From: a virus
Direction: 5' to 3' (one strand)
Virus record (IMG/VR): IMGVR_UViG_3300025000_000065
Span: 1 to 64,000 of that record
Length of the DNA stretch: 64,000 nucleotides
Shown here: positions 7,789 through 48,056 of the stretch, in pieces
Layout of the letters: each line of letters starts with the position of its first letter
Position numbering within the stretch: position 1 is the first letter of the stretch
Notes under the pieces: generated by a model
Databases searched by the model: none
What the model was told of the DNA's origin: nothing
What the model saw: the letters and a program-made list of their open reading frames with translations, nothing else
Translations under genes and position numbers: made by a program

Positions 7789-7960
7789 CTATTAAAGAAT
7801 ATATAAAAGAATATTTAAAAGAAATATTAAAAGAACTCTTAAAGAGAGAAATAGTGTACACCAGTAAAATTCTTTACAAAAAATTTTTTACAAAGAATTA
7901 ATTAAATAGCCTACGGCGTTTACTGCAAAAGAATAAGAAAAATAAAAAGGAAATTAATTT

Positions 7961-8236
7961 ATGAGCGAGATAAATGTAAAAATAATTAAGTGTGATAGTT
8001 GTGGAGGAATCATTCCTGGTAAGTTTTATATAGATCAGGATAAGTTTATTAATCTTTCTGAAGTAAAAGCAAAAGATTCTATGGAAAATAACTTAGACTT
8101 TTGTTTTGAATGTTGGAAGTATTATGCCAGAAGAGCCAGAGGAAGGATTGATACAGTAGAATTGATCAATGCTGAATTAGGTTTCAATATTACTGAATAT
8201 AAGGTTATTGGTTGTAGTGAAGAAGAATTAATTTAG
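7961..8236 (+). CDS. Hypothetical Zn-finger protein
   Basis: CDSC...CFEC; AAGGA RBS. Confidence 0.6.
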   Translation: MSEINVKIIKCDSCGGIIPGKFYIDQDKFINLSEVKAKDSMENNLDFCFECWKYYARRARGRIDTVELINAELGFNITEYKVIGCSEEELI

Positions 8237-8271
8237 AAATAGAATTAGTGTAGATATATGGGAGGTATAAT

Positions 8272-8586
8272 ATGAGTGTTAAAAATAATAGTGGTAAAAA
8301 TAATACTGGTAATAATAAAGAACAAATGTATCAACAATGTCTTCTGAGAAAAAGATCTGGAAATGTAAGTATTCTTGATGTTAGTTGGATTCCTGTAGAG
8401 TATGCTGTTGTTGGTAAGGTTTTGAAGTTAAAAAAAGAAGAAGGAAAATTAGATCAATCAGGTGAATGGAAAAGTGGTTGGGATGATGGTTGGATTGTTA
8501 TAAAAGTATATGGGGTGAGAAGTGAAAGTGATATTGTGAAGATGAATTGGGATTATAGAAAGTGGAGTGAAATTGGTTCTTCATGA
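8272..8586 (+). CDS. Hypothetical phage protein
   Basis: GGAGG RBS; ORF track. Confidence 0.65.
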   Translation: MSVKNNSGKNNTGNNKEQMYQQCLLRKRSGNVSILDVSWIPVEYAVVGKVLKLKKEEGKLDQSGEWKSGWDDGWIVIKVYGVRSESDIVKMNWDYRKWSEIGSS

Positions 8587-9765
8587 TTGACCTAATTATT
8601 GTTATTGGTTTGTTTTTATTAATTTGGTTAATTTTTTTGTTATTGGGTTATTAGGGTTATTAAGGGGAAAGGTTTTATTTTAGTGTTTTATAATTTTAGG
8701 TGTAATTTTTGTTGTTAGTATATTTTTTATAGTTTTTTGGTTTATGTTTTTTTATGTGAAGGTTTTTGTTAGTGATTTTGTGTAGTTTTATTTGAGGTTT
8801 TTGTGTTTGTTTAGGGGGTTTTGGATTGTTTTTGTTGTGAAGTTTGGAGGGGGGTTTATTGAGGGGATTTTGGTGATGTTTTGGATGAGGAAGTTAAGGG
8901 GGTTTTGTAGGGTGTGTGAGTTGATGTGCCATACCTGGTTTTCGAATCTGTTTTCAATTAAATCACGTAAACATACGCCTATCAATCTCATGTTATGCCA
9001 TGCTATACGCTCATATAACTTGCCATAATATACACATTATGACAACTTTTAAGGCTATTTTAAAGGATTTTAAAGCGATTCTATTGGTTGTATGTATAGA
9101 ATGATCATTCAAGGCTGATTGATACCAGGATTGACTATTCTTAACTTGTTGATTGATATCCAATGTCATGCCATAGGTTGACTATATACCAGTATGCAAT
9201 GGTATAGCATCCTGTTTAAGCATGATTTAAAGGATTTTAAACGGTTTATATAGTGATATGATATATAATGACCTATTGACTATATAAACGCCTTAGAATG
9301 GCTTAAACGATGATTGATTAATGGTATTTTTGGAGATTAAAAGTATATCACAACGTGATATATCATGACGTGATACATCGTATAACATGCTGTTTTCTGG
9401 AGAAGCACTATATAACTACTATGTAATACATAATACTGATTGTTAAATAATTTACACTTGTAAAATAAAATACATTTATAAATCATTTAACAATTCATAC
9501 CAATACATCAATCAATACATCAATCCTTAACTATCAATCAATACCATCAATTAAAGTATAACCAGGGTTACACTATTCAATACATCAATCCAACAATACA
9601 ACCTTAACCAACAATCAATACAATCCAACAATCCAACAACTTAACCAACAATCCAATAAACAAATTAAAAAAAATAAAATCCTGATAATTTTTTTCTACC
9701 AGGATTTTATTTTTTATTTTCTCCAGTAATTTATTTATTGTTTGATCAATTAATCAATTCTTTAA
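8587..9765. other. Long non-coding region with G/T-rich left arm and C/A-rich right arm
   Basis: 8590-8935 is almost devoid of C and 9495-9660 almost devoid of G; lies between convergent gene blocks. Confidence 0.7.
9672..9714. terminator. Intrinsic terminator, probably bidirectional
   Basis: AAAATAAAATCCTG...CAGGATTTTATTTTTT hairpin after the minus-strand early genes. Confidence 0.6.
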
Positions 9766-11399
9766 TTAATATTTTACATGAATTCTATTCCATCCATCAA
9801 TCATGATACTATCATCATATAAATCAATTTGATATAAATAATTATCATTATTTTTAATATTTTCTAAATTTTCAGAATATAAAGTTAAATATCCATCTTT
9901 TAAAATCCAATTATTTGATTTAAATTTATCAATTAAAATGTCTTCATTTTCTAACTTATCCCAAATTAAAATTTTTTGAACACTTTGATTTTTTATTTTT
10001 TCATAATTTTTTTGATTCATTTTAAAATCTCCAATTATCCAATTTTTTATTTTTTATTTTCTGATTATTTATTTATAAATTTTCTGGAATTCCATCATAA
10101 TAATAGTTAGTCATAATATTTGAAATACTATCATGATCAAATTTTGACATTAATTTAAAATTCCAATCTTTATTAAAATCCTGAAAACCAAAAAAATCAT
10201 TTTCAAAATTCATAAAATAAACTGAAAAATTATAATTATAGCCATCGTTAAGATTTACATATAATTTAATATTATTTTCCTTGTTTTCATAAATCAATTT
10301 TGAATTTTTATTATTTTTATTTGTTTTCATTTTATAATCTCCAATTTTTTATTTTTTATTTTTTTTATGATCCAATACTTATTTATGATTATAGGGATTA
10401 TTTTTTAAATGTCAATAGTCAATTTTCTATTTTCTGAAAATTGACTATTTTTTATTTTTTTTTAATTTTTATTAATTATTTTTTTCTGTTTTTTTTGTTA
10501 CCGATAAAATTGTACCGATCCGATTCACTTCAAAAATTTTATCAATCCATTTATTATCATGATCAAAAAATCTTAATGTATAAATAACTATACCCGTTTT
10601 TTGATCAAAATTTATCGATGCATTAATAGGTTTTAAAATGAACCATAATTCGCTTAATTTGTTGTCTTGTTTTTTTGAAGTGGTTTTATACATCCCATTA
10701 TTATATTTTATAGTTGACATTTTATTTTCTCCAATTCAATTTTTAATTATTTATTATCCCATGAAAATTTAGAATTAATAAATAAATTATTATTTTTTTC
10801 AAATAAGAAAAAAGATTTTTTCCAAAAAAACTTATCTATACCATGACCATTTTTTGTCAAACAATAATTCCACTTATTAACTGGATTGTATTTTATAACA
10901 TGGTAACAATATTTTATTTTATCCATTGTAAGCATTTTACCATCTCCAATTCTAATCTAATTTTTTTAATATCAATCTAATATCTTTTATATGCTGATTT
11001 TTTGGTAATTACTGAATTATTAAACATAATAACCAAAAAAACCAAAAAAATCAATACAATCATAATAATTGGATTTTTATCAATTGTTTTAAGAATAAAT
11101 TCGATAAAATCTCCAATTAAGCCAAAATTATTAAAGCTTGCTAAAATCTTATTAATTGTCATTTTTTAATCTCCTCATTATTCCATTAACCTATTGATCT
11201 ATTATTGACAATGAACAACGCGCACTGATTGATCAAATAATACTACGTCCCAATTGTGATTTAAACCAGTGTCAAAGCAGGTAATTTTTGTCTCAGAAAT
11301 TGCATACAATGGTTTCAAGTGAGAATTTACACTTAAAAATTCTACAATTTTTGGATCGATTGTGTATTTTCCGTTTCCCATCATATTTTCGATTTTCAT
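9766..11399 (-). other. Leftward early cluster of six small hypothetical CDS (9766-10020, 10073-10330, 10472-10720, 10747-10935, 10977-11162, 11202-11399)
   Basis: Each preceded by a GGAG/TTGGAG RBS; sigma70-type promoters at about 11477 and 10415 on the minus strand. Confidence 0.7.
10387..10415 (-). promoter_or_regulatory. Consensus sigma70 promoter
   Basis: TTGACA-17-TATAAT on the minus strand. Confidence 0.7.
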
Positions 11400-11999
11400 T
11401 TTTTTTGTCTCCTCATTATTTATTTTTAATTATTAACTATCATCAATACCAGTATACACAACATTTTATTAAATACAATACTTTTAAACAAATTAATACA
11501 ATTTTCAACTATTCGATTAACTTATACTAAAACCCAAAACCTATAAATTAAACTTATACTAAACTCATCCAGCATACTAAAAATACAGCCAAAATAAAGC
11601 ACTTTCAAGCGTTTTAAATCAATATAGGTCACTTTATATCTTAACTTTTAAAATCCATTTTAAAGCCAAAAATAACGATTTATAGCAATTTAAATTATTT
11701 TTTTTATGAGTTTTTTCTACCAAAAATTATTAAAAATTATTAAAAAATTTTATTTTTTACACGTGAAAATTAAAAATAAAATTATTTTTTTTATGGTCAA
11801 TTCCTAGAGATGATTATTTTTATTTTTTATTTATTTTTTTGATTATTTTAATGATCAAAATAATTTTAAAATAATTTTAATAAATTTTTAAAATTGATAA
11901 AAAAAAATTCATACTTGTATTATATTTTTTTTCTGTTATGATTTTTATATCGTATTTAATCAAAAAAAATAAAAAATAAACAATTGGAGAAAAAACAAA

Positions 12000-12853
12000 A
12001 TGACATTAAAAAAATATACTAAAAAACAATTAATTAATTTGTCGCCTGAATCAATGCTATACCAACATATTGATAATTTAAATTTACCTGAATTTATTAA
12101 AATTGAATTGTTCGAACAAATGAATTTTTTTTCACGAACAAAAAAAATATTAATGAATTCCTGGTCAAAGTGGGAATTTGAAAACTGGTATTATTCGGAT
12201 TAAAAAAAAAAAAATAAGGATATTAAAAAATGAATCAATATTATTATATCTATGGCTTAATGGGTTTAACGTCCTCAAGTACTTACACAAAAAATATTAA
12301 TAGATGGATTCGATTTTCTGAAGAGGAGAAAATTAAATTTGAAAAAAATAACATTTTACCATATGGCGTGACCAAAAAAGGAATTTTTATTAATGTTAAT
12401 AAATTTCATTAATAACAGATCATTAATAACAGATTAGATTAAACAAATAACAAATTATCAAATAAAATTAGAATTTTATCAGGAGATTAAAAAATGGAAA
12501 ATAAAAATATTAAATTAAAATTAGATAATAGTCACGAAAAAACATATAAAAATATTGAATATATTAATTCTATTATTTTTAAAAATAATGATCATGACAA
12601 TAATAAAATCGATAAAATATTAAATAATTATGATTGTATTTTAGCGTATTTTGAAGGACGTTTAAATTGTCAAAATGATGAAATTATTCTAACCAATTTA
12701 AAAATCGAAAATGAAAATTATATCATTGTTGGACAAAATTGTTTAAATAAACCTTATTTATCATCAATAGAATTATATAAAAAATCTGTAGACTATTCTT
12801 ATCCATTAACATATGATTTAATTGATAATTGGATTGATTCTAATAATTGGTAG
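12000..12853 (+). other. Three small early hypothetical CDS (12000-12203, 12230-12412, 12494-12853)
   Basis: ORF track, RBSs, promoter TTGTAT-16-TATGAT at 11915-11942. Confidence 0.65.
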
Positions 12854-12926
12854 AATGTCAACAGATTGTTAACAATTGTATCATTGTATCAAAATCTATT
12901 GACAATAATAAAAAAATGGCTATACT
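12853..12926 (+). promoter_or_regulatory. Early promoter with 45-bp upstream repeat, copy 1
   Basis: GAATGTCAACAGATTGTTAACAATTGTATCATTGTAT then TTGACA-16-TATACT. Confidence 0.7.
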
Positions 12927-12990
12927 GGAATATATCAGAATAACAAAATAATAAAATCAAATAACAGAAAATTAAAAAAGGATGTAGAAA

Positions 12991-13290
12991 ATGGAAGAGA
13001 CAACAACAACAACAACAAATAAACCAAAAATTAAATACTGGGTAACGATGACTGATAAATTTATGTCAAACTGGGGATTATCAGAAAATAGAATTAATAA
13101 ACTTGTTTTCGAATGTGAAAATTTTAATGAGGCTCGAATCGTTGCGGAAAATGCAGAAAATAGGTCAGATCAAAAATATATTAATATTTGTTCAAATAAA
13201 CCGTATTATAATAATAAAAGATATTTTGTTCAGATCAAAAATAAAGAAATTTATCCCTCCTGGTATGAAAAAGATTATTTCAAAGCATAG
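12991..13290 (+). CDS. Early phage hypothetical protein (YWVTMTDKFMSNWG)
   Basis: ORF track, RBS, own promoter. Confidence 0.7.
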   Translation: MEETTTTTTNKPKIKYWVTMTDKFMSNWGLSENRINKLVFECENFNEARIVAENAENRSDQKYINICSNKPYYNNKRYFVQIKNKEIYPSWYEKDYFKA

Positions 13291-13430
13291 GAGCAAAAAT
13301 GAAAAAGTAAAAATTATTAAATTATATTATACAGTATAAAAATAAAAAATTATAAAAGATTTATACTGTATAAAATTAATAGAATAATTTTAAAATTCTA
13401 TAAAATAAAAAAAATGGAGAAAATAAAAAA

Positions 13431-13826
13431 ATGAAAACCGTAACAAAATTAAACAAAAATGCTGAAAATAAATTAGAAAAATATATCGTAAAATACTTAA
13501 AAGATTATACTAATGATGAACAAGAATTAGAATCCCATATTTCAGATATTTTGCAATATGGCTGCCAATCCGGCGCAGTTAGTCCATTAATTTATTATTC
13601 TGATACTATACCATTTTTCAAAAAATATCAAAATGAAATTAATCAGTTATTATCAGAATTAATTAATGATACTGGTATGCCAATTTCAGAATTATTACAA
13701 TCTTTTGATGATACCGATCCTTTATGCCTGGATACTCAAAATCAGAATTTAATGGCGTGGTTTGGATTTGAAGAAACCTTAAGAAATTTGTGCTTAAAAT
13801 CTGAAGTATTGGAAGGTGAAATATAA
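13431..13826 (+). CDS. Acidic early phage hypothetical protein (GCQSG...LIYYSDT)
   Basis: ORF track, GGAG RBS. Confidence 0.7.
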   Translation: MKTVTKLNKNAENKLEKYIVKYLKDYTNDEQELESHISDILQYGCQSGAVSPLIYYSDTIPFFKKYQNEINQLLSELINDTGMPISELLQSFDDTDPLCLDTQNQNLMAWFGFEETLRNLCLKSEVLEGEI

Positions 13827-13958
13827 ACCAATAAAAATTATATTTTATTATCTGATTATTGCCATTATAAAAAATTATAAAATCCTATAATGGCAATGAT
13901 CAGGAAATAAAAAATAAAAATCAAATAACAGATCAAAAAAAAAAAAAGGAATGATATC

Positions 13959-15088
13959 ATGACAACAAATAGCAAAAATTTATTTAATATTTTACCTGAA
14001 GAAAACTTTAATCAATATGCTGAAAATAGAAAAGAATATGTAATCAATCAATATATCGATTATGCCATAAAAAGAGATTATGAAACACGAACAAGGGAAC
14101 AAATAGAAAAAAGCATAACAGATTATTTTTATTATATGGAAGTAGATTTTAAAAGATATCAGGAAGAAGTTTTTAAACATAATGAAGAATATAAAAGAAA
14201 ATACGGAAGAAGTTTAAATCCATTTTTAAATCAAACAATTCCTGATCATGATTATGCTAGTATGAAAACTGGTATTTCTACATTTTTTATTATGAATTTA
14301 TTTGGTATATTTGATTCTTTATGTCGTCAATATAAAAAAGAAAATGATCAAATAACAGAATAAAAAAATAGTATAATAACAAATAAGGAATTATAAAAAT
14401 GAATGATCGAAAATCCTATAAAATAACAAATTCAGAAAACAATGATTATATAAAAGATTTAATTATTCCTGATTATGTTATACAGGAATTAAATAAAAGT
14501 TTTCATAATCAAAAATCAGATTATTATAATAATTTTGGAAATTTTTTTCCTATTTGGAATGAAAAAATTAATGAATTTTTAATTAAAAATTTTCCAATTT
14601 TCACAAATGAAAACATGATTTATAATATAAATAATATTTATAAAATTGTTTTTAATTGGAATAATCAAATATTTTATATATCATCATAAAATAAAAAGGA
14701 ATAACAGATCATAAAAACCATTAAATTTATGCTACGTGAAAATAGCAATGAAATAGACAACGAAGGAAAGGAATTTTTCCATAAATTCTATATACTACCA
14801 AAAAAATTAACATTATCCTGGAAATGGCTATTTTTTGACATGGTAATTATTGATAAGGATTTTATAACACAACGGATTAAAATTTTTAAACATGTAATTA
14901 CATTCTACTATAATTTTAATAAAAAGGATTTTAGAATTATTTTGTATGATGCAAGAGGATATATGTATATAGAAATTCAAAATTTAAATCCTGATCATAA
15001 AATAACATTCTGGAAAAATGAAAAAAGGAAATTAAATGGTAAAATGAAATTCCCAAAATATATTTTCACTTCAGATAAAATTAAATAA
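13959..15088 (+). other. Three early hypothetical CDS (13959-14363, 14399-14689, 14729-15088)
   Basis: ORF track, AAGGA RBSs. Confidence 0.6.
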
Positions 15089-15632
15089 AAATAAAACAAT
15101 AAAATAATAAAACAATAAACCATAAAACAAAATAACAGAAAGGGAATAACAGATCACGAAAACAAAAAAAGAAACGCAACAATTGAAAAAGAATCGCAAG
15201 GAAAAAGAAAATAAAAAATTATTGTATTTTGCTTTATTACGTGAAGATAAGGAAAATTAAAAATGGATAATTCAGGATTTTTTATAGCCATAATGGTATT
15301 TATTGGGATTTTTTATATTGTCATTTATGAAATTATTAAAGATAAAATGAAACAAAAAAGAATTGAAGATCAAAATAAATGGAGAAAAAATATATGTAAT
15401 TTTCCTAAGCATAACAGATAAAAAAATAAAAAAATCCTTCCTCCTCCTCTGAATGTGATATCTAAAATTAAAAAAAGATATCACATTCTATTTTAAACAC
15501 ATTTTCCAGTATAATAAAATGATTTATATACTAATAGATATAAAATGATCAATGGTAATTTAAAAACGCTGAAAATGGCTAAAAATAACCAATAAAAACA
15601 GTATTTTATTTAATAAATTGCTGGTTGAATTG

Positions 15633-15706
15633 GAATGTTAACAGATTGTTAACGATTGTATCATTGTATAAAAAACTATTGCAATTTATTTATAACTTGC
15701 TATAAT
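15633..15706 (+). promoter_or_regulatory. Early promoter with 45-bp upstream repeat, copy 2
   Basis: GAATGTTAACAGATTGTTAACGATTGTATCATTGTAT then TTGCAA-16-TATAAT with an extended TGn. Confidence 0.7.
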
Positions 15707-15749
15707 TAGTATAGAAATAAAAAATAAATAAAAAATAGGAGATAAAAAA

Positions 15750-16136
15750 ATGAACAACAAATTATATAAACACTTTTCGGGAACATTACAAGCTTATCAA
15801 AATTGTATTAAAACTGGTAATAAAATTTGGGAAGATAAACACGAAGAAAAATTAAATGAATTGGTTAAAAATGAAATGCCACATGGAAGTGGTATTGATG
15901 CTGGTATGGAATTAGATTTAATCAATTCCAAACCAAATAAATTGATTTTTACATTCGAATTTCATCATATGGATGAAAATGGTATGTATAATGGATGGAC
16001 TGATCATAAATTAGTTGTTACGCCTGATTTATACAATGATTTTTATACAAATATAACAGGAAGAAACAAGAATTATATTAAAGATTATTTATATGAAATT
16101 TTTGAATATGCTTTACGACAGGAAGTTGATTATTAA
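15750..16136 (+). CDS. Early phage hypothetical protein (PHGSGID motif)
   Basis: ORF track, AGGAG RBS, own promoter. Confidence 0.7.
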   Translation: MNNKLYKHFSGTLQAYQNCIKTGNKIWEDKHEEKLNELVKNEMPHGSGIDAGMELDLINSKPNKLIFTFEFHHMDENGMYNGWTDHKLVVTPDLYNDFYTNITGRNKNYIKDYLYEIFEYALRQEVDY

Positions 16137-16341
16137 TAACAGAAAAAAATGGAGATTAAATCATGTGGCAAACAAAAATTTTTAAAACAGAAAAATCAAG
16201 AAATAACTGGATTGAAAAAAATAAGAATAAGTATAGAATTGATATTATTTTTGTCAATAATGGCTATGGAATAGAATATAAAAAACTGGTGAAAATTTAA
16301 ATAATAAAATCAAAATTTTATTAGAAAAGGATAACAACAGA

Positions 16342-17934
16342 ATGAAAACATATAATATCAGAATTCATAAAAAAGATGATACTACAATTTTAGAAAAAAT
16401 TCCTGCTTATCTTTATGAATATATGGGATATAAATTTTTAGTACATAAAACCTGGTTATCGATAAAAAATAATGAAAAAAATCCTGCATGGCAAGTATCA
16501 GAATTTGATACTGGTATGGGATTTATTTCATTTTGTGATAGTAAAAAAGAATGTTATGAAAAAATTCATAATTGGTTTAATGTAGACAATATTGGATCAA
16601 GAATAGAATTTTTTGATCAAGCTGTAAAATCTCAAATAAACAGATACGGAAAAGCAAATTAAACAATAACAAAAGGATTGAATAAAATGAGAACAAGAAA
16701 AACATTAAAAATTGGAAGTGAAGTATTATATCAATATTTTAATAAACCTGAAAAAAAGTTTTATGGTGATATCAGAAAAGGAATTGTAAGAGATATTTTT
16801 GATCATAATGGAGAAAAACTTTTTGAAATAGAACACGCAATAGAAGATACAAATATTCTTGTTTCGATAATTGTACATAGAAAAGAAATTAAATCAATCC
16901 TATCATAACAGAAATACAAACCAATAAAAGGTTAATTTTATTAGAATAACAATAACAGAAAATAAAAGGAAAAAATAAAATGAGTGCATTTATAGTAAAC
17001 AAAAAACATATTGATTACCTTGTATCAGCATTATATTATAATAATAAAGATTACAGTAATAAATATATGGATATTCAAGAATTAAACAAAATTGGTCAAA
17101 CCTTAGTTGATGCAAATTATAAAAGTGTTAATTATCGTTATAATGAATCTGAAAAACCATATAAATATATTTTTTCTCAAGTTTTTGCAATTGATTTTAT
17201 TCAAGTATTAAAAGGAATTAATTGTCTTGATTATCAATCCTGCGAATATCCTGCATGGGAAAGATCAAAAGCAAAAAAGATTTTAAATCAAATAAAAGAT
17301 CAATGTATTTATCATCTTACCGATTCTGAAAAATATAAATGGGAAATTAGATAATAACAGAATATAAAAGATAATGGAGAATAACAAAATGAAAATAAAA
17401 TCAAAAGATAACAGAACAATATATGAACCAGTTGAATTTCAATATATTATTCCCAATGGAGTATTTTATCTTGAAAATCCACTTGAAAATAAAAATGCTT
17501 TACCTCATTATACATGCGAAAATTTTGATCCTGAATTGATGGTATGGACAGTTTATTTTGAATGGCAAAATACTAATCCCTGGATTAAAAAAGAATTTCG
17601 ATCCTTCCAATATGGAAATAAATTAGCTGGATTAATCAATTCAATAGATTCAGATATGTTTTAAGGGAATAACAAAATGATCAAAGTATTTTTTTATGGC
17701 GAAGATGATAACAAAAGAAAAATAACAGTAAAAATGAGTAGCATTAAATCTTATGATAAGTTTATTGATGAATATAAATATATTGGAGGATTCAACAGGT
17801 TTTCAAGTGAAATATATGGTGATATGAATAAAAAAGAATCTGATCGATATATCTTTATTCCTGCGAACAACAGAGGATTTGAAGTAATTTATAAAATGTT
17901 ATATGGTCATTCTCCATATGTAGTAAGAAAATAA
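16342..17934 (+). other. Five early hypothetical CDS (16342-16662, 16678-16908, 16980-17354, 17374-17664, 17677-17934)
   Basis: ORF track, RBSs; 16980 carries MSAFIV...LDYQSCE. Confidence 0.65.
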
Positions 17935-17947
17935 AAAAAATTGGCTA

Positions 17948-17975
17948 TTGTAAATAATAAAAAACTTGTTATAAT
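17948..17975 (+). promoter_or_regulatory. Sigma70-type promoter
   Basis: TTGTAA-16-TATAAT with TGn. Confidence 0.65.
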
Positions 17976-18022
17976 AAAATTAGAAATAAACAACAATAAC
18001 AGAAACGAAAGGGAAAAATAAA

Positions 18023-20514
18023 ATGACGACACCAGTAATTTTTAGAAAATTTAAAGAAGGCGATGTAATAGCGTTATTTCCTACAATTCCTTATTCCTGG
18101 AAATATGATTTTACATGCTATCAACATATTGGTCAACATTCTGGATGTGAAGGAATTATCACAGAATTAACAAAGTTATGTAAACCCGAAGAATATAAGG
18201 ATTTATTAGAAGAATTAATCTCAATGGGTTATGATGATTTAGTTGTAAGAAAAAAGATTACCTACAAACATTTTTTAGAACGAGAAAAAAGTATGAAGGA
18301 GATAACAGAATGAAAATTAAATTAAATAAATCAGAATATTGGATTTTATTAGAAGCATTAAGACGATATTTAAAATTCAATGATCAAAATAAATCAACAA
18401 CAGAATGTTGGACAGGTTTAGAAACATTGACGACAGCAAAAAGTGTTATTGAAAAAGGATATATGAATTGGGTATATAAAAAACCTTATCGATCATTAGG
18501 ATGGTTGAAATTAACAGAAAAAGGATCAAAGATTATTGAACAATGGATAAACGATGGTTATACAGAATTAGAATTTATTGAAGGTTTCGATTGGGAATAT
18601 CCAACAAAAAATAAAAATTTACCTGGTCAATTAGTTGAAATAAATTTGTAAAACCAATAAAAAGATTGTTTTATTAGATAATAACAGAAAGGAATTGTAA
18701 CATGAATAATAATAAAAGAAAAACAATTATTTATGAATATGATAAAATTAATACGTTTATTGGAGAAAAATCTTTATCTCCATATGAAAAAAAATTACTT
18801 CATCAATGGAAAAAAGAATGTGGATTTATTGGTTATATTTCAGGATATCGTTATTGGAACAATGAAACAGAATCGGTATTAGTTTATTGTAAAAATTATC
18901 CTGGAATTACTGATATTGAAAACAGACGATCAAACGGATTACATAAAGCAAAATTTTATTATCTATAACAGAAAGGATTTTATAAATGTATATTCAATGG
19001 ATTTGTGGAAGTTGCAAAGAAATAAATTCAAATAACAATACAAAAAATAGTGTTTGTACATGTGGTGCATGTGGAAAAAAGAAAAATATTAATTATATTA
19101 AAAAATATTTTATATATATTATAACCAATAATTTATCAATTAATAATTTTAAAAGCTAATAATAAAAAGGATTTTATAAATGGATAAAACATTTTATATT
19201 CAAAAAAATATTGGAAGGTCAAAATATGTGCTGAATTATCACGATGGAATTCAAACACATAAAGATAACAGTCCGTTTTTTGGAATTGAGATTTTTTCAA
19301 ACATAAAAAAATTGAATAACAGAATTAAAGAATTAAGATTGTTGGGATATCAGGAAAAATATTAATAAAAAGGAAAAAATTATGATTATTGAAGTTGAAA
19401 ATAAAACGTATGAATATAATAAAGAAAATCCAACCAATATTTTAGCCATACTCAACCATAGTCCATTTAGATTATACAAGGTTAACAAAAATTGGGTTTA
19501 TCATATAGTTGACAACGGTAACATTGATTCAATATTGATTGTCGATGGTGGATTTGTTATTCAGGATATAAAACAACAAAGAAGTGTTATGTTTATGGTT
19601 GATGATATAGATTGTATTGCTGTTTATACGGATGTTGTTGAAATTTATTATCATAAACATATTACTTATACTCAATTTGAAGGGATTATAAAATGAGAAA
19701 TAATAATGATGAAAGTAATCCAACATGCAAGGGAATTGAATTAGAAGATTTATATAACAAATTGTCAAATTTTTATGAGGATAATTATTTTGAATATTAT
19801 GATAATAATGAAATTCATACAAAATTAAGGGAAATTCAAGATTTATTACATGAAACCTTAAAATTAATGGAATGGCAAATGAAAAACAACAATCAAGTAA
19901 AGCTTGACAATTGGAAAAGAAATTCTAATAATCAATAAAAGGAAAATAAAATGTATATTTATAACTATCAATTAATCGATGCAATAAAAAAATTAGAAAA
20001 TGAGATTAAATCTCATGCTGGAAAAGATTCAATAAAAAATTATTTGTTATTTGAATATAATCCTTTAGGTGATGCTGATAAAAGAATTTGTTTATATAAA
20101 ACCGATGGATTATTCACTGATAATAAAGATAACAAAAATTTCAAAACCTGTTTTACGGCAAACTCAAAGGTATTTTCAAGCAATGATGAATTTTATGCCA
20201 TTGTACCAGTAAAACAACTGTTAGAATCCCTTAAATTCTACGATAAAAGCAGTATGGTTCAAATATCTATTGATGAAAATTATAAAATGATAAAAAAATA
20301 TTGTCAAATATTTGATACCACAAAATTAGAAAAACAAAAAACATTAAGAAATTTAGATTATAGTTATCTTTATAACAGAGGAAATTTTACCGTAAAAACA
20401 ATTTGTTTTGTTATTGATGGATGTAAAATAAATTTTATTTCTCAAGAAGGAAGAGATGAAATTCTTAAAAACATTTTCCAGGACGAAGAAAGAATTTATG
20501 AAATTATTGAGTAA
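18023..20514 (+). other. Seven early hypothetical CDS (18023-18313, 18310-18651, 18702-18968, 19180-19365, 19382-19696, 19693-19938, 19951-20514)
   Basis: ORF track, RBSs, ATGA overlaps. Confidence 0.65.
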
Positions 20515-20559
20515 CAGTTAACAACCAATAAAAAATCTATTTTATTAGAAAATTGGTAC

Positions 20560-20587
20560 TTGTAATTTGAAAATAAGTTGCTATAAT
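20560..20587 (+). promoter_or_regulatory. Sigma70-type promoter
   Basis: TTGTAA-16-TATAAT with TGn; upstream AAAATTGGTAC also precedes the recombinase promoter at 44190. Confidence 0.65.
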
Positions 20588-20609
20588 CAATAGTAAAGGA
20601 GATAACAAA

Positions 20610-23600
20610 ATGACAACTGTACTCAACCTAAGAAATACACCAGTAAAAATTATGAATGATAAATTGTCTACAATAAATTTTAGTGTTATTGAACCTATAA
20701 TTTATGATTATCACATTATGAATAATATACAAATGTATTTCAATATGGAATATTATCAATTTACTAATGAACTTGCGAATAGTGACCTTGAAATTGTTGG
20801 ATGGGAATATAAATCAGGAGATAAAACCTTGATTGTAAATTTTGATTATAAAAATTGTGCTGGTTATATCTATCTTTAGAATAAAAAAAGGAGAAAAATA
20901 AAATGACAAATAATCCGAAAATTACAGTAAATAATTTATTGAAAGGTTTAATTGGATCGGGAATAATCATAACAGATTGGAATAAATTAAATAACAGAAT
21001 GGATGTTTTATTTGGATGTAATACCAATGTTGAAATAACAATCAATAGAAAAAAAGAACAGGTTTTAATTGATGTAAAAGGTGGTGTAGTACAAAATATT
21101 TTGACAACTTGTGAGAACACTGATTTTACACTTATTGATTGGGATAATATTGAAGGTGGTCAAGAAGATTTATTTGAATTAGGTGATTATGGCGCAGAAG
21201 TAAAAACAGAAGGTGATATCTTAAATGCAATCAATGAAGCTAATCAAGAAATCTTAGATAATAACAAATTTTATAATGAGGAAGAATAAAATGACAGAAA
21301 AACATTTTTTTAAGCCTGGTGAATATTGGATTGGTGATCCTTGTTATGCAGTGAAAGATGAAAACTGGAATGAGTTATGTGATAACACAGGATGTTTTGG
21401 TTTAGAATTAGAGAAATTTCCCTCTAATTGGCAAAGCGGTTTATTTGAATATAATGATCAATTGTGCTTTACATATAAAACAAAATATGGAGATGGTACA
21501 TATTATGATAACAAAGGGAATGAATATGGTGTAGATGCTGGATTAATTGGAATTATGCCGATTGAATGTTGTGATGGTGATAGTATGCATGGTGGAAATA
21601 TTCATATTTTTGAACATTCTTTTCAAGTATGGGAAGAAAATGGAAAATTTTATTTTGGAGATATTGAAATAAATACTGATGATATTGATGATTTTTGGAA
21701 TGAAGATTTAGAATATTAATAAAAAATAAGGAAAATTAAAATGAAAAAAACAGAAAATAATCAAATAAAAATATCTGAAAAAGAAATAATTGAACATTTA
21801 ACAACTTTTATTGAGGAATGCGATTCAGATGAATTAGCAAGAATAACAGGAGATATTTTTGGTGGAAAATGTTTTTGGTCAGGAGATATTGAATATATGG
21901 ATGAAATATATGATGCAATTTACACTTTTGAACCTGATGAAAATTATGCTGGCGAATTTGATAGCCTTGATTTAGACCAATAAAAAGTTTATTTTATTAG
22001 AAATGATATAACAGAAAGGACAATAACAATGAGCGAAAATAGAAAAAGACATCCTGGAAATTATAAAAAATTAGCACGAGCATTAGAACAACGTGGTTAT
22101 AAGGTAGAAAAAGAAATTATTTTTGACTATAAATATATTTTTTCCAACCTATCTAATAAGAAGAAACAATCACTTTTCACATTTTGGAAAATAACAGGAA
22201 AAGGAATTGATGGTGGTTTTTGTACACCTAACAAACAAAGTTATAAAAGTCTTCGAGGTCATCTTACAGCAGATAACACTGAATGCTTTGATAAATGGAG
22301 CAAGTGTCCGTTGAGAATGAAAATTCAAAATCTTGATTATGAAAAACTTTTCAAAGAATTGGAATTATTGGGAAGTCCAGAAGGATTAGAAATATCAGAT
22401 AATTTTGATGAAAATGGCGTTTTTACATACGAAGAAGCCTAATAAAATAAAAGTTTTATTGTATAATAACAAACAATCAATAACAGATAAGAAAGGACAA
22501 ATAACATGTGGAATTTTATAGATGCTGAAATAAAATGGAAAACAGATGACAGTATTAAAGATGAATTACTTATTATGTATTGGAATAAAAAAACGAAAAT
22601 TGGAGCTGATTTTTCTATCAAGTGGTATTTTTTAGACACTCCCACACCTAGACTTGAAATTTTTGAAGATTCCTGGTTGGCTTTATATCAATGTGGTCAA
22701 GATTTTCTGAAAGTGCTTGCTGAAAATGATAATAAAAATTTAACTAAAAATGAAATGAAAGTTAAATTATTGGAAATTGGTTTTGTTGATAAAACCCATG
22801 AGAATTCATAAAACAATAAAATGATATTTTTATCAGAAAGGAAATGAAACATGAATTTTATTATAGTTTTTAATCTTATTATAAATATATTAATTTTATT
22901 ATGTCTTTTATATTATTTTATTCTTTGGAGAATTAGTTTTACCTGGAATAAAACTTTTTGGACAGAAAAAAAATATGGATTTACTATGTGGTGGAAACCT
23001 TTTAATCATGATTATGAAAAAGGAATTATCAGTATCGATTTCATCAATATAAAAAAGATAGAAGAATTAGAAGAAAAAGAAAGGTTTGGTAAACGATGAT
23101 TGATAACGATATTGCAAATTTACGTAAAGATTGGAATTACAAAAATAATGATGATACATTAATTCTTTTGGAAAGAATAGATCAATTGTGTATAGAATGT
23201 GGTAGAATTTTCCAGGCATTGAAAGAAGTCCAAGAGCATTTAAGAAATGGTAACAAGAATAAAGCTTTAACAATCGTGAATGAAGCCTTAGAGCCAAAAA
23301 GATATAATAACAGACCATATAAGGAAAACGGTAATGAATATTAAACAAATATTTTGTTTTCATAATTATGAATTAAAAAAAGAAGAATATCTTTATTCGA
23401 AAAAAAGATGGAAGGTATTTGATAATGAAATTTGGGAAGTTTTTTATGATTATTACTCAGAAGAATATAAATGTGACAAATGTAATAAAGTAAAGAAAAA
23501 ATTAAAGAAAAGATAAGTTTTATTAAGGAAACCAGGAGAAAATAAAAATATGAACATAACAGAATTATTTACAAGAGAAAACGAAAATGATCTTGACATT

Positions 23601-24969
23601 AGAATAACTTGCGGTTATCGCTGGATGGTTATGGATGACAGAACACATGAATTCATTGTATATGAAAGAAAACCATACCAAAAAAATACTTATATAATTG
23701 GTCAAACTAAAGATGAAGATTTAGCATATGAATTTTTGACTACTAATATATGAAAGGAAAACGGATGGGATTGTTTACTTATGTTATTATTCCCGATGTT
23801 CTTTTGCCAAAAAAATATCAAGGATTTAATGAATGGCAAACTTATCAAATTGTAAAAAGAGAAATGGGAAAGATAGAAGTTTTAAATGATGGAACAATGG
23901 TTTATAATAAGAATGAATTTTATTCTGGAAACAATGAGATTTTTAAATTGACAAATAATAATTCTAATGGAAATGAGATTGTAAATATTGTGGCAAGCAA
24001 CGGAATGGATGTTAATTCTAAAAAGCATAAATTTATATTTGCCAAAATGAAAATTGAAAATTCTAAAGTAATAGAAGTATTTGATTTTGTAAAAAAATAA
24101 AAAGGAGAATAGTATGGTTAAAATATTTAATATAAAAAATTTTTCAATTATGTTATGGATCGATTTATTTTTTTATGATGATTTTAGTTTTTATTTTTAT
24201 TTACTTCCAACAATACAGTTATCGGGATCAAAATATGTTTCCAGGGCATCAATTCAATGGTTATTTTTTGAAATAGAAATAAGTTATTTTTTTGATAATA
24301 GAAATTAAATAAAACCGTTATTTTATTAGAAAAGGAGACTTAATTTATGACAAGTATGCTTGGAGCGTTTTTATTGATGTTGTTTGGAATTATAATTAGT
24401 GGAATGAAAAAAAAAGTAAAATAACAGAAAAGGAGAAATAAAAACATGAAATTAAACCCATTTGGTAATAACAAAAATAAACAGTTGGTCAAACAATTAC
24501 AAGAACTTAAAGCAGAAATTTTGAGAAATTCTTTGATCCCAAGAATTCGTTATCAGGGTTTTATTGTTAGAGATAGGAAAACCAAACAAGCTTTAGGTGG
24601 AAAAAATATTTCTGGATTTTTTGTTTATTTAGATAAAGAATTGGCTCAACAACAATTAGATAGTATAATGAAATCATCTAAAGAAAAATATGAAGTTTTT
24701 CCCGTAGATGTTGTTTATACCGAAGAAAGACAGGAACAATGAGAATTATATTTTATGATCAAAAAGAAGACGATAACAGTGAAATGACAATTGATCAGCT
24801 AATCCAATATTTACAAGTGATCAAATTAGAATGGGGAGGCGAGTGCATTATGGGACTTCCTCAAGAATTTCAAGATGATGATGGAGAAACAGTAAGATGG
24901 AATGCTTCAATTAGCAACATTGAAATTGAAACTTCATTACCTGATAAAACGGAAATTTTATTATATTGA
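20610..24969 (+). other. About fourteen small hypothetical CDS, several acidic (e.g. 20903-21289, 21276-21719, 21741-21983, 22029-22442, 22506-22811)
   Basis: ORF track, RBSs, tight packing. Confidence 0.65.
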
Positions 24970-24985
24970 AAGGAATATAAAAATA

Positions 24986-26056
24986 ATGGATAGAAAATTA
25001 GCCAGTGTTCAAAAAATTATTGATATTTCTCCAATAGAAGGAGCAGATAGAATTGAAGTTGCTACTGTTCTAGGTTGGAAATGTGTTGTTGCTAAAAAAG
25101 ATAATTTTAATGTTGGGGATCTTATAGTTTATTTTGAAATTGATTCCATTCTTCCAGATCTTCCCATGTTTGAATTTATGAAGGACAGAAAATATAAAGT
25201 AAAAACTATTAAATTACGAAAACAAATTAGTCAAGGATTAGTGATGCCGTTATCAATTCTTCCAGATAAAAATTGGAAAGAAGGAGATGATGTAACAAAC
25301 GTTTTAAGAGTTACAAAACATGATCCTCAAGCAGAACAGGAAGAACGAGAAACTAACATTAAAAAAAGTCAATTAGAAAGATGGCTTCGTAAACAGAAAT
25401 GGTATAGAAAATTATTTCCTAAAAAAAGAAGTGGTTTTCCTAATTGGATTAAGAAAACAGACGAAGATAGAATTCAATTATTTCCAAATTATTATTATCA
25501 TTGGAAAGATTTAAAATTTATTGTTACCGAAAAGGTTGATGGACAATCTTTAACTGTTTTTATTGTAAAAAATAAAAAACTTTTTTTCCGAAATAATATA
25601 GAATTTGGAGTTTGCAGTAGAAACTTAAAATTAAATAAACCGAATAACAGTTCCTGGTGGACAGTTGCCAAATATGCAAGATTAAAAGAAAAATTACTAC
25701 AAATTCCATTTAGTAAAACCATTGTTCTTCAAGGAGAAATTTTAGGACAGGGAATTCAGGGAAATAAATATAAGATCAGCGGATATAAGTTATATATTTT
25801 CAATTTAATTGTTGATGGGAAAATCATTGATAGCATTGCTGCAAAAGAAATTCTGGATAAATTAAATCTCAAATTTGTTCCCATTTTAGAAAAAGATTTT
25901 TCTTTATTTCCTACAATGCAGGAAATGGTTGATTACGCAAAAGGAAAGAGTGTATTATTCGATACTCTAAGAGAGGGATTGGTTCTTAGGAATTATGAAA
26001 ACAATATTAGTTTTAAGGTTATTAATCCTGAATTTCTTTTGAAAAACGATGTATAA
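24986..26056 (+). CDS. RNA ligase, Rnl2/DRB0094-like, with N-terminal OB domain
   Basis: MDRKLASVQKI...IEGADRIE start; nucleotidyltransferase motifs TEKVDG, LQGE, EGLV, FKVIN; start 24986 after GAAAGGA (ORF track 24902). Confidence 0.88.
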   Translation: MDRKLASVQKIIDISPIEGADRIEVATVLGWKCVVAKKDNFNVGDLIVYFEIDSILPDLPMFEFMKDRKYKVKTIKLRKQISQGLVMPLSILPDKNWKEGDDVTNVLRVTKHDPQAEQEERETNIKKSQLERWLRKQKWYRKLFPKKRSGFPNWIKKTDEDRIQLFPNYYYHWKDLKFIVTEKVDGQSLTVFIVKNKKLFFRNNIEFGVCSRNLKLNKPNNSSWWTVAKYARLKEKLLQIPFSKTIVLQGEILGQGIQGNKYKISGYKLYIFNLIVDGKIIDSIAAKEILDKLNLKFVPILEKDFSLFPTMQEMVDYAKGKSVLFDTLREGLVLRNYENNISFKVINPEFLLKNDV

Positions 26057-26095
26057 TAAAACGATGATTTTATTTGGAAAAAGTGTGAATTAAAA

Positions 26096-27419
26096 ATGAC
26101 AAAAATAAAAGATGTAACTAATAATGTAGTTTTTGGAAACAACGATGATGAAGCCTTACCAGTATTGAAATGTGTTTGTGGTCATAGATTTCAATCTTGG
26201 GATTTTATTATCAGTGTGTATGAAGAAGATCCATATCAATGTCCTAAATGTAGTGCTAAATTATTTTTTGGAAGTTCAATTACAGTTTATCAAATCGAAG
26301 AGGAAGAATGAAAAAACTCGAAGATGAAGAATTATATAAAAAATTAAATACAATAAGAACTCATCTAATTGTTCTTTTATCACAATATCAACCATATCAA
26401 TATAGAAGATTGATAGAGTGTTTAGATATTCTTTGTGATATAATGGAATTAGATCCAAATAAGAATTATGAATCGGATTAAATAAAAGGATTATTTTATT
26501 ATGATAAAAAAAGATGATGCAAAAAAAATAATTATAGAATATTATTATGTTTATGATTCTTGTTATAGGGGAAATGTTGGTAGTGAACATGATGGTTTTC
26601 CAAGAGGAAGTGGTATATATAATACTTTTAAAAAATCAAATGCACAAAGAATGGTTGATATAATGAATGTTGTTGCGGAAAAAGAAAATAAATTAAAATT
26701 ACAAATTGGAAAAGAAAGCATAATGTTAGACGCCTTGAACATTGAAAATATGTCTGATGAAGAAATTATAAAATGGGTAAAAAATAAATAAAAAAATTTT
26801 TATTATAAAAAGAGGATAAATAAAATGGAAGAAACTATTGTAGAAACAAAAATTTATAAATCAAGATTGGCTTCTCACTCTGACACAGAAGAACATATTT
26901 TATTAACCACTAATTCTAACAATGTTGATAATGATTTTTTAATTGTATGTACATCTGAAACAATACCATCATTAATAGAACTTTCTGATAAATTAAGAAA
27001 TCATGATTGGACATTTGAAATGTCAGATGATCATCGATATTGGAGTGCTGGAAATGCCGAAATGAATACAATACGTGGTCAAATTCTTCAATATGGAACT
27101 GGTGGAAAAAAATTATTGGATTTCTTTTATCCAGAGAATAATAGCGGTTGCCATAGTAAAAATAGTTATCTTTAAAAGCAAAAAATATAGATAAGGAGAA
27201 ATGATGGATAGATCAACATTTTGGACTGGATATTTTGTTTATGCTGTAATTCAAGGAATGATAATTATGGCTAGATTAGTAAAATTGATTGAAATATCTT
27301 GGTGGTTAGTTTTTATTCCAACTATTTTAATATTTCTTAGTGCGTTTGTTTTTTTAGTTTATCTTAGTTTTGTTTATAATTTAAGAATCGAAAAAGACGA
27401 TAAAGAAAGTAGGGTATGA
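26096..27419 (+). other. Five small hypothetical CDS (26096-26311 Zn ribbon, 26308-26481, 26501-26791, 26825-27175, 27201-27419 membrane)
   Basis: ORF track plus manual translation of 26308-26481. Confidence 0.6.
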
Positions 27420-30100
27420 TGAACGTAACCAATATTGTAGTGGATGAATTGCCGGAATATGGTTGTGATGATTGCCAAATTAGAAAACCATCTATATCTA
27501 GAAGCGGTTACGATATTTTTATGTGTTCTGCTGTTAATGAAGATGTAACAGAGCATACTGAGAATGCTACACGTCCCTCATGGTGTCCCCTGGTTGTTGA
27601 GGTTCCCGAAGTGTGCGAGTGGAAAAAGGAAGATAAAGCGACTAATGGGAATTATGATATTTATGTATCACCACATTATCCATACATTTATGTATCAAGT
27701 ATAGATCACAATATTCCAACTTTTTGTAGAGATTGTGGCAAGCGTATCAAGTATGTGGAGGAGGAGTGATGGATATAGAACAAATTGTATGGGACGAAAG
27801 AAAAATAAAACTTATTGAAAAGCAATTAGGAGAAGGATCTGTTTCATATGAAGTTGGAAGAGTTTATACAAAAATCGTTGCATATTGGGAAGTTGTTCCG
27901 TGGATTGCAGTTTATAAGGGTGATGAAATATTCGCTAGAATGGACGCTACAAACTGCGTGATCATTTACGCAGAAAAAGAAAGTGAGGAGTGATGAGCAC
28001 AAATAGCGACCCGATGGTCAAATGTTCTATATGTGGTTTTCTTTATTATCACTATACAAATATAGTATGTCCTCGTTGTAACTTCGATAACCAAAATATT
28101 TCGCAAAACGAATCATTAGACGCTCTCACCGCTACCATAGCGCAACGTGATGCGGAGATTGAAAGGCTGAGGGGAGTGTTGAAAGAGATAGCAACACATG
28201 ACTTAGATGTGTGGGCATGTGAGATTTGTAGGATTGCACAACAAGCATTGGAGGATGTGAATGATGAATAAGTTTACAAAAGCATGGTTAGATGCAAACA
28301 AGAATAATTTCGGAGAGCAATTACCAAATGAAGCTGAATTACAAGAACAGATAAACAATAAGGATGCGGAGATTGAGAGGTTGAGGGAAGCGTTGAAGGA
28401 AATATGGGATCTAACTCACAATAAACAAAAAATTAGATTGATAGACGCTCTCATTGAGATTGATATTGTTATAAAACAAGCCATAGAAGAGGTGAACAAT
28501 GACTAACAAAATAATGTGTGTGCTTATGGAATGGAACGGAGGGGATACCCTTATTGTCAGAGTAGAGGATTGGAAAGATTTTGTTACAGAAATAGACTGC
28601 CTTCTTATTGATGGTGAAGCAGGCGATACGTTTTCTATTACATTAATGGAGAACAGTGAAAAAGAACTTGACAATTTACCAGAATTTGAAGGGTGGTGAA
28701 CAATGACTGAATTTATTATGAAACATCAATTTGAAATTGGGTATCTTCTAGGTGTTGCAACAACTTTGATAATTACTTATTTAGTTTAGGAGGAATAATG
28801 ATTGAATTTACGAAAGAATGGATTGAGGAACAAAAAAAATTGCTAAACCGTATCTCTCCACTTCCGTGGAAAGCCTGTGATTGTGGAAAGTGTGGTCAAG
28901 TATCAAACAAAATTGATTGTGTTGCTAAAGCAACCATTGGTGATTGGGGTGATGATTACCCTTCCATAAGACGTATAGGAGGTTCAATCGAGGGGAGATT
29001 TGAAACGTACATGGAGCAAATAACTTATGGTTCTGTGTCAAAGGACGAAGGAATAGCGAACGCAAAATATATTGCCGAAGCCTGTAATAACTATCCGAAA
29101 GCCATTGACGAAATCCTACGTCTCCAATCACGTGTGCAGGAACTGGAAGAATCCTTGCATGACCAGATTAAAGAAGACGCTGATCGAATAGCCTACCGAG
29201 ATAAACGCATAGTAGAACTGGAAGCTGAGTTAATGTTCTATCAAATGGAATGCCCTGACCTTATTGGAAGATACCAACCACAAAAGGAGGAATGATGTTA
29301 AGAAGATGGTTAATGAATATTAGATGGGCTATCATCAAATTAATTGCTGGTAATAACACAATAATAATAAATTGTACTTTTCAATGTGATGGGCTAAAAG
29401 AAGGATGGAGTATTAGTAATCCAAATAATCCAGAAAGAAGTCTTGTTTTATATGGCAGAAAATTACAGGAAAGTGAGGAATGCCGATGAGTGAATTTCCA
29501 ATGAAATTAATTGGTAAAGAATTGCCTATCAGTATTGTGTATCAATATGAGGATGAAATACCAGAGAACATAAATGACATAATTTATAGCGCTATGTTTA
29601 AGTCAAGTTATGTTGATTTTTGTCGCATATTTCCAGTGTTAAAAATTAATGGTAGATACTTTTATCTTATTGAACAATGTGATGCAATCAATGACGGTGA
29701 ATAATGGTCATATTAACAAGAGTTGAATTTGTTATGATATTGTTTGGATTTTTCTTGGCTGGATATTGGTTAAAATATGTTTTGGAGAATAGGAGAAAAT
29801 AATGACTCATTTCTGGATTGGATTCATTTGTTTTGTTGTTGGCGTGATTGTAGGTTGTGTTGTCATATTTAGTGTTTCATTATATGTTGCGACTAGAAAT
29901 GAAGATAAGATATTTATTGATAGAGAGTAATGATGAAAGTTATCAAATCGATTATTCATTTTTTGAAGTGCCACTATGGTTATCACGAATTTATGAACAA
30001 TGTTCCTGTTTGTACTTGGTGCAGATATAATGCTCATGCATTAAGTGGTGGAAAATTTAGAAAAAAACTATGGCTATCAGATTTCAGAAAGAGAAGGTGA
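27416..30100 (+). other. GC-richer block of translationally coupled small hypothetical CDS, probably imported
   Basis: More G/C codons, GGAGGAGTGATG stop/start overlaps, Zn-finger and coiled-coil ORFs. Confidence 0.6.
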
Positions 30101-30373
30101 ATGATGTTTTGGATTGGATTGTATATTTTGCTTATAGTATTATTCGTGTTGTAGTGGAGAGCAACATATTATCGGACGCCAGACGAAGAAGCTCTTGATA
30201 TTAAGAAAGAAACCAAATATTGGAGAAAAGAAACAATACGAAAAAGGGAATTTGATAAAGATTGGAAAGAATATGTAAAGCGTATGAAAATTATATTGTA
30301 TGGCAATGGCAATTCACTTAAGTCAAAAAGTATAATAAACGCTAATTGTAAAATAGATAAGGAGATAAAATGA
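30101..30373 (+). pseudogene. Membrane-anchored ORF interrupted by one in-frame TAG
   Basis: MMFWIGLYILLIVLFVL*WRATYYRTPDEE...; TAG at 30152-30154; frame continues to a TGA overlapping the next ATG. Confidence 0.55.
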
Positions 30374-48055: not shown

Positions 48056-48056
48056 T

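Follow-up and report, generated by a model that had tools for sequence, protein, structure and literature searches.

An oriented heptamer array, and strand-specific purging of the same word, in a subset of SPbeta-like phages encoding YonO

Several described systems invite comparison with the repeated word that is the subject of this report. The stoperators of cluster A mycobacteriophages (L5 gp71 sites) are 13-bp, mostly intergenic sites bound by a known repressor; they lie in both arms, following the direction of transcription of each arm, and are thought to act on elongating polymerase. The class II termination/pause signal of T7, ATCTGTT, and the 7-bp cosQ of lambda are both read by a translocating enzyme, and the Chi sites known from Bacillales are of the AGCGG type. 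Chi sites that are terminally clustered and co-oriented have been described in lambdoid phages (PMC12315714), and SPbeta itself carries SPBRE, the operator of MrpR (YopR), a 15-bp promoter-associated site found at about 10 places (PMC10516654). Here we describe the heptamer ATAACAG in IMG/VR virus record IMGVR_UViG_3300025000_000065, a viral contig of 111,969 bases whose first 64 kb are referred to as the window. Judged by its genes, the contig is that of an SPbeta-like temperate phage encoding a YonO-type RNA polymerase, and in a subset of such phages ATAACAG is a bare, orientation-specific DNA signal. What is new here is that, outside the array formed by the word, the same orientation has been purged in a strand-specific manner that deepens toward the far end of the genome. 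One or two features of this word are found in each of Chi, the stoperators, cosQ and the T7 class II signal, and each of these fails at least one defining feature that we tested.

The layout of the contig matches that of SPbeta. A leftward arm, with yonO and the late genes, occupies 1-11.4 kb and 72.5-112 kb, and the rightward arm consists of the block that holds the array (block R, 12-26 kb) followed by a middle block (block B) that runs to 72.5 kb. In the window ATAACAG is present 38 times, as against 9.7 ± 3.1 (maximum 17) in dinucleotide shuffles counted on both strands; 35 of the copies are on the + strand, all of them within the array (Table 1), and the 3 on the - strand are at 11933, 30388 and 55894. 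Extending the count to the whole contig leaves the + strand at 35, every copy in the array region, and brings the - strand to 7. Between 11.9 and 26 kb, where ATAACAG is the most enriched of all 7-mers, an order-2 Markov model predicts 3.3 copies (Poisson p ~8e-24). A first-pass annotation, made from the letters of the window, had reported the heptamer about 30 times in the rightward early region and had estimated that composition predicts only a few copies; both statements hold, its 34 listed positions are all exact, and the one copy that it missed is at 17722. It had also reported almost no copies after 26 kb or on the opposite strand, which is correct for the + strand (0 copies); the - strand is simply at expectation.

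Composition and codon bias were both excluded as causes of the array by Markov models and codon-preserving shuffles. When synonymous codons were shuffled within genes, a check that the first-pass annotation had proposed, 3.7 ± 1.6 fully intragenic copies were obtained (maximum 8 in 300 shuffles) as against the 15 observed, which occupy the two reading frames in which the word creates no stop. The remaining 20 copies lie in the 3.0 kb of non-coding or gene-boundary DNA of the array block; in other terms, 57% of the copies are found in the 22% of the block that is non-coding and 43% are intragenic. Spacing along the array is compatible with random placement (mean 389 nt), and the close pair of copies at its head is seen again at 15132/15146 and in the relatives G005 and G006 considered below. 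The array ends within an RNA ligase gene, and the small rightward genes run on to about 31 kb.

Related phages were located by a tandem-pair pattern search and by protein searches. The first-pass annotation had suggested looking for analogous polar motifs in relatives, and the very same word forms a one-strand array in the equivalent arm of G001, G005, G006, G012/G014, G013 and G015 and in the cultured Psychrobacillus phage Perkons (MT325768.1). There are 60 copies in 20 kb of G005, 26 in 9 kb of G006 and 13 in 6 kb of the partial contig of the close relative G001; the arrays of G012/G014, G013 and G015 are weaker. In an unbiased scan no other 7-mer came near ATAACAG in local clustering in any of G000, G005 and G006 (p 1e-19 to 1e-36), and in the partial contig of G001 it ranked second by this measure (p 8e-8). 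The same scan revealed nothing comparable in SPbeta, PMBT24 or TR-TP1. BUCT082, c-st and pCD1602_4 likewise have no ATAACAG cluster, and with these six phages lacking it the array was rejected as a general trait of YonO phages. Two unrelated contigs, G007 and G008, show weak clustering only. G005 and G006 have 15 and 11 proteins, respectively, in common with the present phage, at 22-43% identity, and none of these is in the array block; the earlier view of an oriented, selected signal in the first rightward block thus finds support in its being kept by distant relatives with unrelated genes there. Selection on the word is also evident at shorter range. In comparison with G001 (nucleotide identity ~83%), conservation of aligned copies is 6 of 9 and 7 of 10, whereas neutral drift predicts 27%, and other copies have been gained and lost between the two phages. 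A local tandem-repeat form of the word was seen in G006, where six copies stand at 45-89 bp intervals, four of them exactly 45 bp (original coordinates 62,696-62,980).

Perkons is of particular use for placing the array on a linear map. It has 27 copies at 5,396-22,590 and 3 elsewhere on that strand, and the ends of its genome are defined, with a direct terminal repeat of 264 bp (PMC13245101). The array starts in an ArdA anti-restriction gene and lies 5.4-22.6 kb from one end, yonO is at the other end, and one reverse copy of ATAACAG is inside the terminal repeat. In SPbeta-like phages the genome opens in the equivalent divergent region, between yonP and yonR (bioRxiv 10.1101/2021.11.22.469490), the terminal repeat of Perkons occupies the corresponding place, and by analogy with these phages and with Perkons the physical end of the present genome would lie in the divergent region between its two arms.

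The surroundings of the word were compared at 134 sites from four genomes. Outside the heptamer no base is conserved save for lineage-specific preferences at -1 and +7, no fixed partner element (-35/-10 or downstream box) was found within +/-40 nt, and the word stands at no fixed distance from genes: about 28 of the 134 copies are 10-30 nt upstream of a start codon and the others are evenly distributed through genes. A promoter for a phage polymerase or sigma factor, of the T4 late TATAAATA type, would be expected at a fixed short distance 5' of transcript starts that include the ribosome-binding site; in many of the start-proximal copies the ribosome-binding site abuts the word, and a transcript starting 6-8 nt downstream would lose it. 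In the present phage the coding strand of the rightward arm carries all 35 copies, the word often stands directly 3' of a stop codon (TAATAACAG six times) and 5' of a ribosome-binding site, and host-type promoters lie upstream of several copies; the first-pass annotation was right in placing it both before ribosome-binding sites and inside coding sequence in different frames. This placement, together with the large non-coding share, would suit a polar transcription signal, for which the stoperators and the T7 class II terminator are precedents: acting from the non-template strand or through a bound protein, the word would stop, pause or mark RNA polymerase in one direction. The early arm would then be controlled as a unit, and in the long leftward arm a copy in the template strand would be lethal. 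The sense-strand position, often just 5' of a ribosome-binding site, would equally suit an RNA-level tag, AUAACAG in early transcripts being bound or cut by a nuclease or repressor (RegB-/RegA-like) for joint shut-off or processing. Against a tag of this kind, predicted RNA folds leave the word no more accessible than controls of the same composition (its unpaired probability and hairpin-loop frequency equal theirs, and display in a hairpin was rejected on these grounds), and the word is missing from the leftward early operon (9.0-11.4 kb), an operon that starts from the same divergent region. Nor does any nuclease family prove specific to the array-bearing phages, and the pattern does not match that of a RegB-type target.

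Outside block R the word has been removed from the strand that carries the array. The + strand there holds 0 ATAACAG where about 10 are expected, 1 ATAACAA where about 25 are expected and 14 ATAACA where about 63 are expected, and no other 6-mer on that strand is as strongly depleted as ATAACA. On the - strand the counts agree with expectation in all blocks of the contig, and ATAACA is never depleted there under codon-preserving shuffles. In the middle block from 26 to 64 kb the sense strand has no ATAACAG or ATAACAA and 5 ATAACA (15-28 expected), with the opposite strand again at expectation. In the late block (72.5-112 kb), where the + strand is antisense, there are 6 ATAACA vs 23.7 in codon-preserving shuffles; the corresponding same-orientation counts are 8 vs 20.3 in G005 and 18 vs 32.4 in G006, and in the late block of Perkons 4 vs 16.6. 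Under codon-preserving shuffles the late-block depletion has z = -4.8, -3.6 and -4.4 in three genomes. The purge extends to yonO and the terminus-proximal leftward genes (pooled, 8 vs 23.9), genes that in SPbeta are not YonO-dependent. Reverse (antisense) copies in rightward blocks are not depleted (170 vs 180 expected, pooled), and therefore the purge follows absolute DNA orientation rather than gene direction; it is not that antisense copies as such are harmful. Within the arrays themselves, credible genes in reverse orientation are few. Avoidance of Type III or ISP restriction was rejected as an explanation, both orientations of the word being present in the contig.

The purge is also graded. 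With five array-bearing phages pooled, the observed/expected ratio of the same-orientation hexamer runs, from the array end to the yonO end, 1.52, 0.95, 0.66, 0.43, 0.41 and 0.30; on the opposite strand it is flat along the same linear map (0.72-1.18), and in three array-free relatives it is flat at 0.88-1.38. The jump from 0.30 to the array coincides with the place of the physical terminus. Across 11 YonO phages, which are related so that the p value is optimistic, array strength predicts depletion of TGTTAT, the antisense word, from the late operon (Spearman -0.81, p 0.0025), and a sense-strand control word in the same test gives a rho of -0.05.

These data bear on both of the alternatives raised above. 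In favor of a polar transcription signal, the purge is strongest in the leftward arm, including the late genes that in SPbeta are transcribed by YonO, a single-subunit RNA polymerase, as one operon of 37 genes from one start (PMC5467207). However, a symmetric polar block predicts that reverse copies should be purged from the rightward blocks, and they are not; the purge takes in leftward genes outside YonO control in SPbeta as well as part of the rightward middle block; the presence of the array does not track the YonO tree; and the role of 35-60 copies spread through coding DNA is left unexplained. We therefore consider polar control of transcription possible but doubtful. The RNA-level tag, for its part, can draw on the finding that sense-strand copies are purged from middle genes of the present phage and of G001. 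Yet the purge that is universal is on the antisense strand of leftward genes, whose sense strand is at expectation, and there is no purge in the middle block of G005 or G012 or in the first half of that of Perkons. An early-mRNA mark, which the first-pass annotation had entertained, is on this evidence unlikely.

Stoperators resemble the array in that many copies of an asymmetric site are distributed through gene blocks in one orientation relative to transcription. The array differs in the length of its site (7 nt), in being 43% intragenic and in its confinement to one arm, with the same absolute orientation purged from the other. Under the stoperator rule the leftward arm should carry sense copies; these are only at expectation there, the antisense orientation is purged, and the early operon has none. 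The T7 class II signal and cosQ are, like ATAACAG, single bare 7-nt orientation-specific signals, and CTGTTAT, as the word reads on the other strand, shares CTGTT with the T7 signal, but each is present once or a few times and is not arranged in arrays, and the enzymes on which they act are unrelated. SPBRE, too, is repeated, and it belongs to the same phage family and to the same rightward arm. The word common to the upstream regions of seven SPBRE-bearing SPbeta genes is ATATGTAT-like and unrelated to ATAACAG, and identity of the array with the MrpR operator was rejected on this difference and on the absence of an array in SPbeta. In other YonO phages (upstream flanks of yonO homologues L206, L207, L221, L227 and L246-L248) words of the TATGTAT/ATACATA type, which resemble the word of SPBRE-bearing SPbeta promoters, are enriched in the arm divergent from yonO and are probably repressor sites. 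In the literature on the word, on YonO promoters and on SPbeta transcript maps we found no paper describing the array, and the term 'motif' is absent from the Perkons paper (PMC13245101).

Because the purge is graded, anchored at an end and limited to one orientation, with the opposite orientation neutral everywhere, the reader of the word would seem to be something that travels along DNA in a single set direction, with the terminus as its starting or finishing point, and neither a symmetric DNA-binding regulator nor a factor acting on sense-strand RNA. We favor the possibility that the word acts as a hold or brake on genome entry that lets an early anti-defence block be expressed first, and would put its probability at roughly 0.3; polar control of transcription, an RNA tag and Chi-like protection are weaker rivals. 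In this scheme the genome would enter the cell early end first and the word would act during entry, holding or slowing the passage of the DNA, or of a polymerase or translocase drawing the DNA in, such that the block with takeover and anti-restriction genes could be expressed while most of the genome is still unexposed. A stray copy at a later point of the map would stall entry at a stage when little driving force, or few upstream rightward promoters, were left, and this would be why the purge deepens with distance. The force that drives DNA out of a capsid falls as DNA leaves, and polymerase-drawn entry would depend on ever more distant rightward promoters. Tentatively, then, the genome may hold a sequence-written entry programme, the rest of it having been cleared of the word in proportion to the lateness of its entry. 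There is a parallel in the first-step transfer of T5, with its injection-stop region, and the slow, transcription-coupled entry of T7, where an early block of takeover and anti-restriction genes is likewise first in the cell, although we know of no repeated short word that controls entry of either phage and, to our knowledge, entry has not been studied in SPbeta-like phages. Among the roles put forward in the first-pass annotation, a protein-coating site during entry would come closest to accounting for the graded, end-anchored purge.

Several points weigh against an entry hold. We know of no entry system that uses dozens of copies of a short word. The end that enters first is judged from gene content and from the SPbeta and Perkons termini, and for this contig, G005, G006 and G012 the position of the ends is itself taken from analogy. 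The six close relatives listed above as lacking the array have homologous packaging and tail genes. There is no purge anywhere in the middle blocks of G005 and G012, nor in the array-proximal half of the Perkons middle block, and the relatedness of the 11 phages softens the correlation between array strength and late-operon depletion. Finally, the sub-variant in which a rightward RNA polymerase pulls in the late arm is argued against by two terminator-like hairpins that face each other exactly at the convergent junction of the arms (contig 72,983-73,215; L173:8983-9215).

Two further explanations place the word near a DNA end. Like the array, Chi sites, including those of the lambdoid phages cited above, are short bare polar words near a genome end. 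In a Chi-like role CTGTTAT, on the 3'-ended strand from the terminus, would switch off AddAB or RecBCD entering at the exposed early end; the word is clustered beside a DNA end and, if the geometry is as we suppose, oriented for an enzyme entering there, and phages with many terminally clustered Chi sites do exist (PMC12315714). However, Chi is host-specific and is not counter-selected elsewhere, whereas this word is common to phages of clearly different hosts: it recurs in phages of very different composition, one of them with a Bacillales host, and protection predicts no cost for extra copies, leaving the graded same-strand purge (0.95 to 0.30) unexplained. Nor did the candidate host-like genomes that we examined show clear over-representation or strand runs. 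In two genomes with related phage pieces, which are host-like candidates only, ATAACAG counts equal those of the reversed control, and across 401 genomes of one bacterial class the ATAACAG ratios are 0.2-3.3, the strongest case being without strand runs. The Chi-like protection site suggested in the first-pass annotation thus seems improbable. For packaging, the terminase motor, having begun at the other end and filled the head, would read the word on its approach to the terminal cut site, much as cosQ is read. Absolute orientation and the sharp discontinuity at the terminus fit this, and, were packaging to begin on the yonO side, the array would enter the head last. A premature stop, though, would be equally fatal anywhere, so that a graded purge is not expected, and relatives with homologous terminases lack the array; dozens of copies over 14-20 kb are, moreover, unlike any termination site known to us. 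We rate a packaging signal as unlikely, slightly more so than an RNA tag.

Gene content offers few clues to the reader. No gene family, of repressors or otherwise, is exclusive to array-bearing genomes (blastp, E 1e-3, with limited sensitivity for small proteins), which suggests that the reader is core phage machinery or a general host factor. The nearest candidate, an SSB-like protein of 350 aa (window 51137-52189), was rejected as it is also present in TR-TP1. YonO as the reader is weakened on two counts: (i) the YonO proteins of array-bearing phages are not a clade; and (ii) leftward genes that do not depend on YonO in SPbeta are purged as well. A YonO promoter is unlikely, as no reverse copy heads the late arm in G005, G006 or G012, and a YonO-specific template signal would leave the purge outside the YonO operon and in part of block B unexplained. 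A symmetric polar roadblock, a template-strand nick and a symmetric DNA-binding regulator were rejected, the depletion of reverse copies in the rightward arm that a symmetric regulator would bring about not being seen. In alignments of the terminase made in search of a host, the only matches were a contig of a metagenome-assembled genome (MAG) labelled archaeal, apparently mis-binned, and a Bacilli MAG; a class-wide search gave 3 weak matches. The former contig, L198 (DAKN01000024.1), comes from a public MAG labelled Pacearchaeota archaeon and is 97% identical to the terminase of the present phage, and the same MAG includes a contig (G011 contig C40) with five same-strand ATAACAG in 2 kb. This is probably phage DNA mis-binned into that MAG.

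A word that is conserved across phages with otherwise unrelated early genes, that is imposed on codons and that has been removed from one strand of a 100-kb genome is under strong selection. With a purge that is graded, strand-specific and end-anchored, candidate readers can be limited to machines that travel in one direction from a terminus. Under any of the readings this would be a new kind of genome-scale signal in phage biology, and it may be a new way of timing the exposure of a genome to host defences. Perkons, which is cultured on Psychrobacillus sp. L4 and has defined ends, makes the array directly testable, and array and purge together allow the early arm of uncultured SPbeta-like contigs to be recognized and the contigs to be oriented. 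Coordinates of the relevant features are collected in Table 1.

Table 1. Features of the window bearing on the ATAACAG array (window coordinates; a dot marks a feature without strand)
Feature	Position	Strand	Remark
YonO-type two-barrel single-subunit RNA polymerase gene, 946 residues, head of leftward arm	3474..6314	-	marks phage family
Leftward arm within the window, antisense strand purged of ATAACA (3 vs ~8)	1..11400	+	
Leftward operon of eight small genes leaving the divergent region	9011..11399	-	without sense-strand ATAACAG
Divergent non-coding region between leftward and rightward arms	11400..12000	.	putative physical terminus
Sole reverse-oriented ATAACAG in the first 30 kb	11933..11939	-	overlaps TTGTAT-16-TATGAT promoter-like site with TG extension
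ATAACAG array: 35 exact copies (28 are ATAACAGA) and 20 ATAACAA, in ~35 small rightward genes and spacers	12412..25650	+	
First two array copies, 14 nt apart	12412..12432	+	
RNA ligase gene containing the last array copy (25644)	24902..26056	+	copy at same position in relative G001
Rightward middle block within the window (extends to ~72.5 kb)	26001..64000	+	

The assignment to the SPbeta-like phages draws on several proteins. Between the terminase and its counterparts in SPbeta and Thomasclavelia phage TR-TP1 identity is 37-40%, and the YonO protein of the window has 27-34% identity to its homologues in SPbeta, BUCT082, PMBT24, TR-TP1 and Perkons, with the metal-binding aspartate triad G-x-D-x-D-x-D at residues 560-566 invariant across three distant homologues. 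A tyrosine-recombinase-like protein (window 44248-45138) is conserved in all the SPbeta-like genomes compared; it may correspond to MrpR (YopR), the master repressor, and not be an integrase. A protein of 682 residues (phrog_1735; window 31526-33574) is 60% identical to Bacillus and Clostridioides phage proteins and is present in 537 phage records, a degree of conservation that is unusual for an unannotated protein.

Other observations concern the leftward arm and elements scattered through the contig. At 7053-7800 of the window a gene weakly similar to replication initiators (phrog_428) precedes 4-5 direct repeats of about 22 nt (GTTCTTTTTAACAAC core); these resemble an iteron-type origin, which suggests plasmid-like maintenance. 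Between this replication-initiator mini-operon and the leftward small genes there is a non-coding stretch of about 330 nt (8590-8930) whose - strand lacks G altogether, being composed of A, C and T, and it could be an RNA, an origin or a packaging element. An AAA_24 (RecA-like) protein at 52475-54568 is split by a LAGLIDADG domain, probably an intein or a homing endonuclease insertion. Finally, a 7-6-7 palindrome, AATAAAA-N6-TTTTATT, is present 41 times in the whole contig (allowing at most 1 mismatch), in all blocks and often at gene boundaries (in the window, for example, at 13830, 16923, 18656, 21979 and 26055). It is independent of ATAACAG and might represent a cassette system, a repressor site or an AT-rich terminator.

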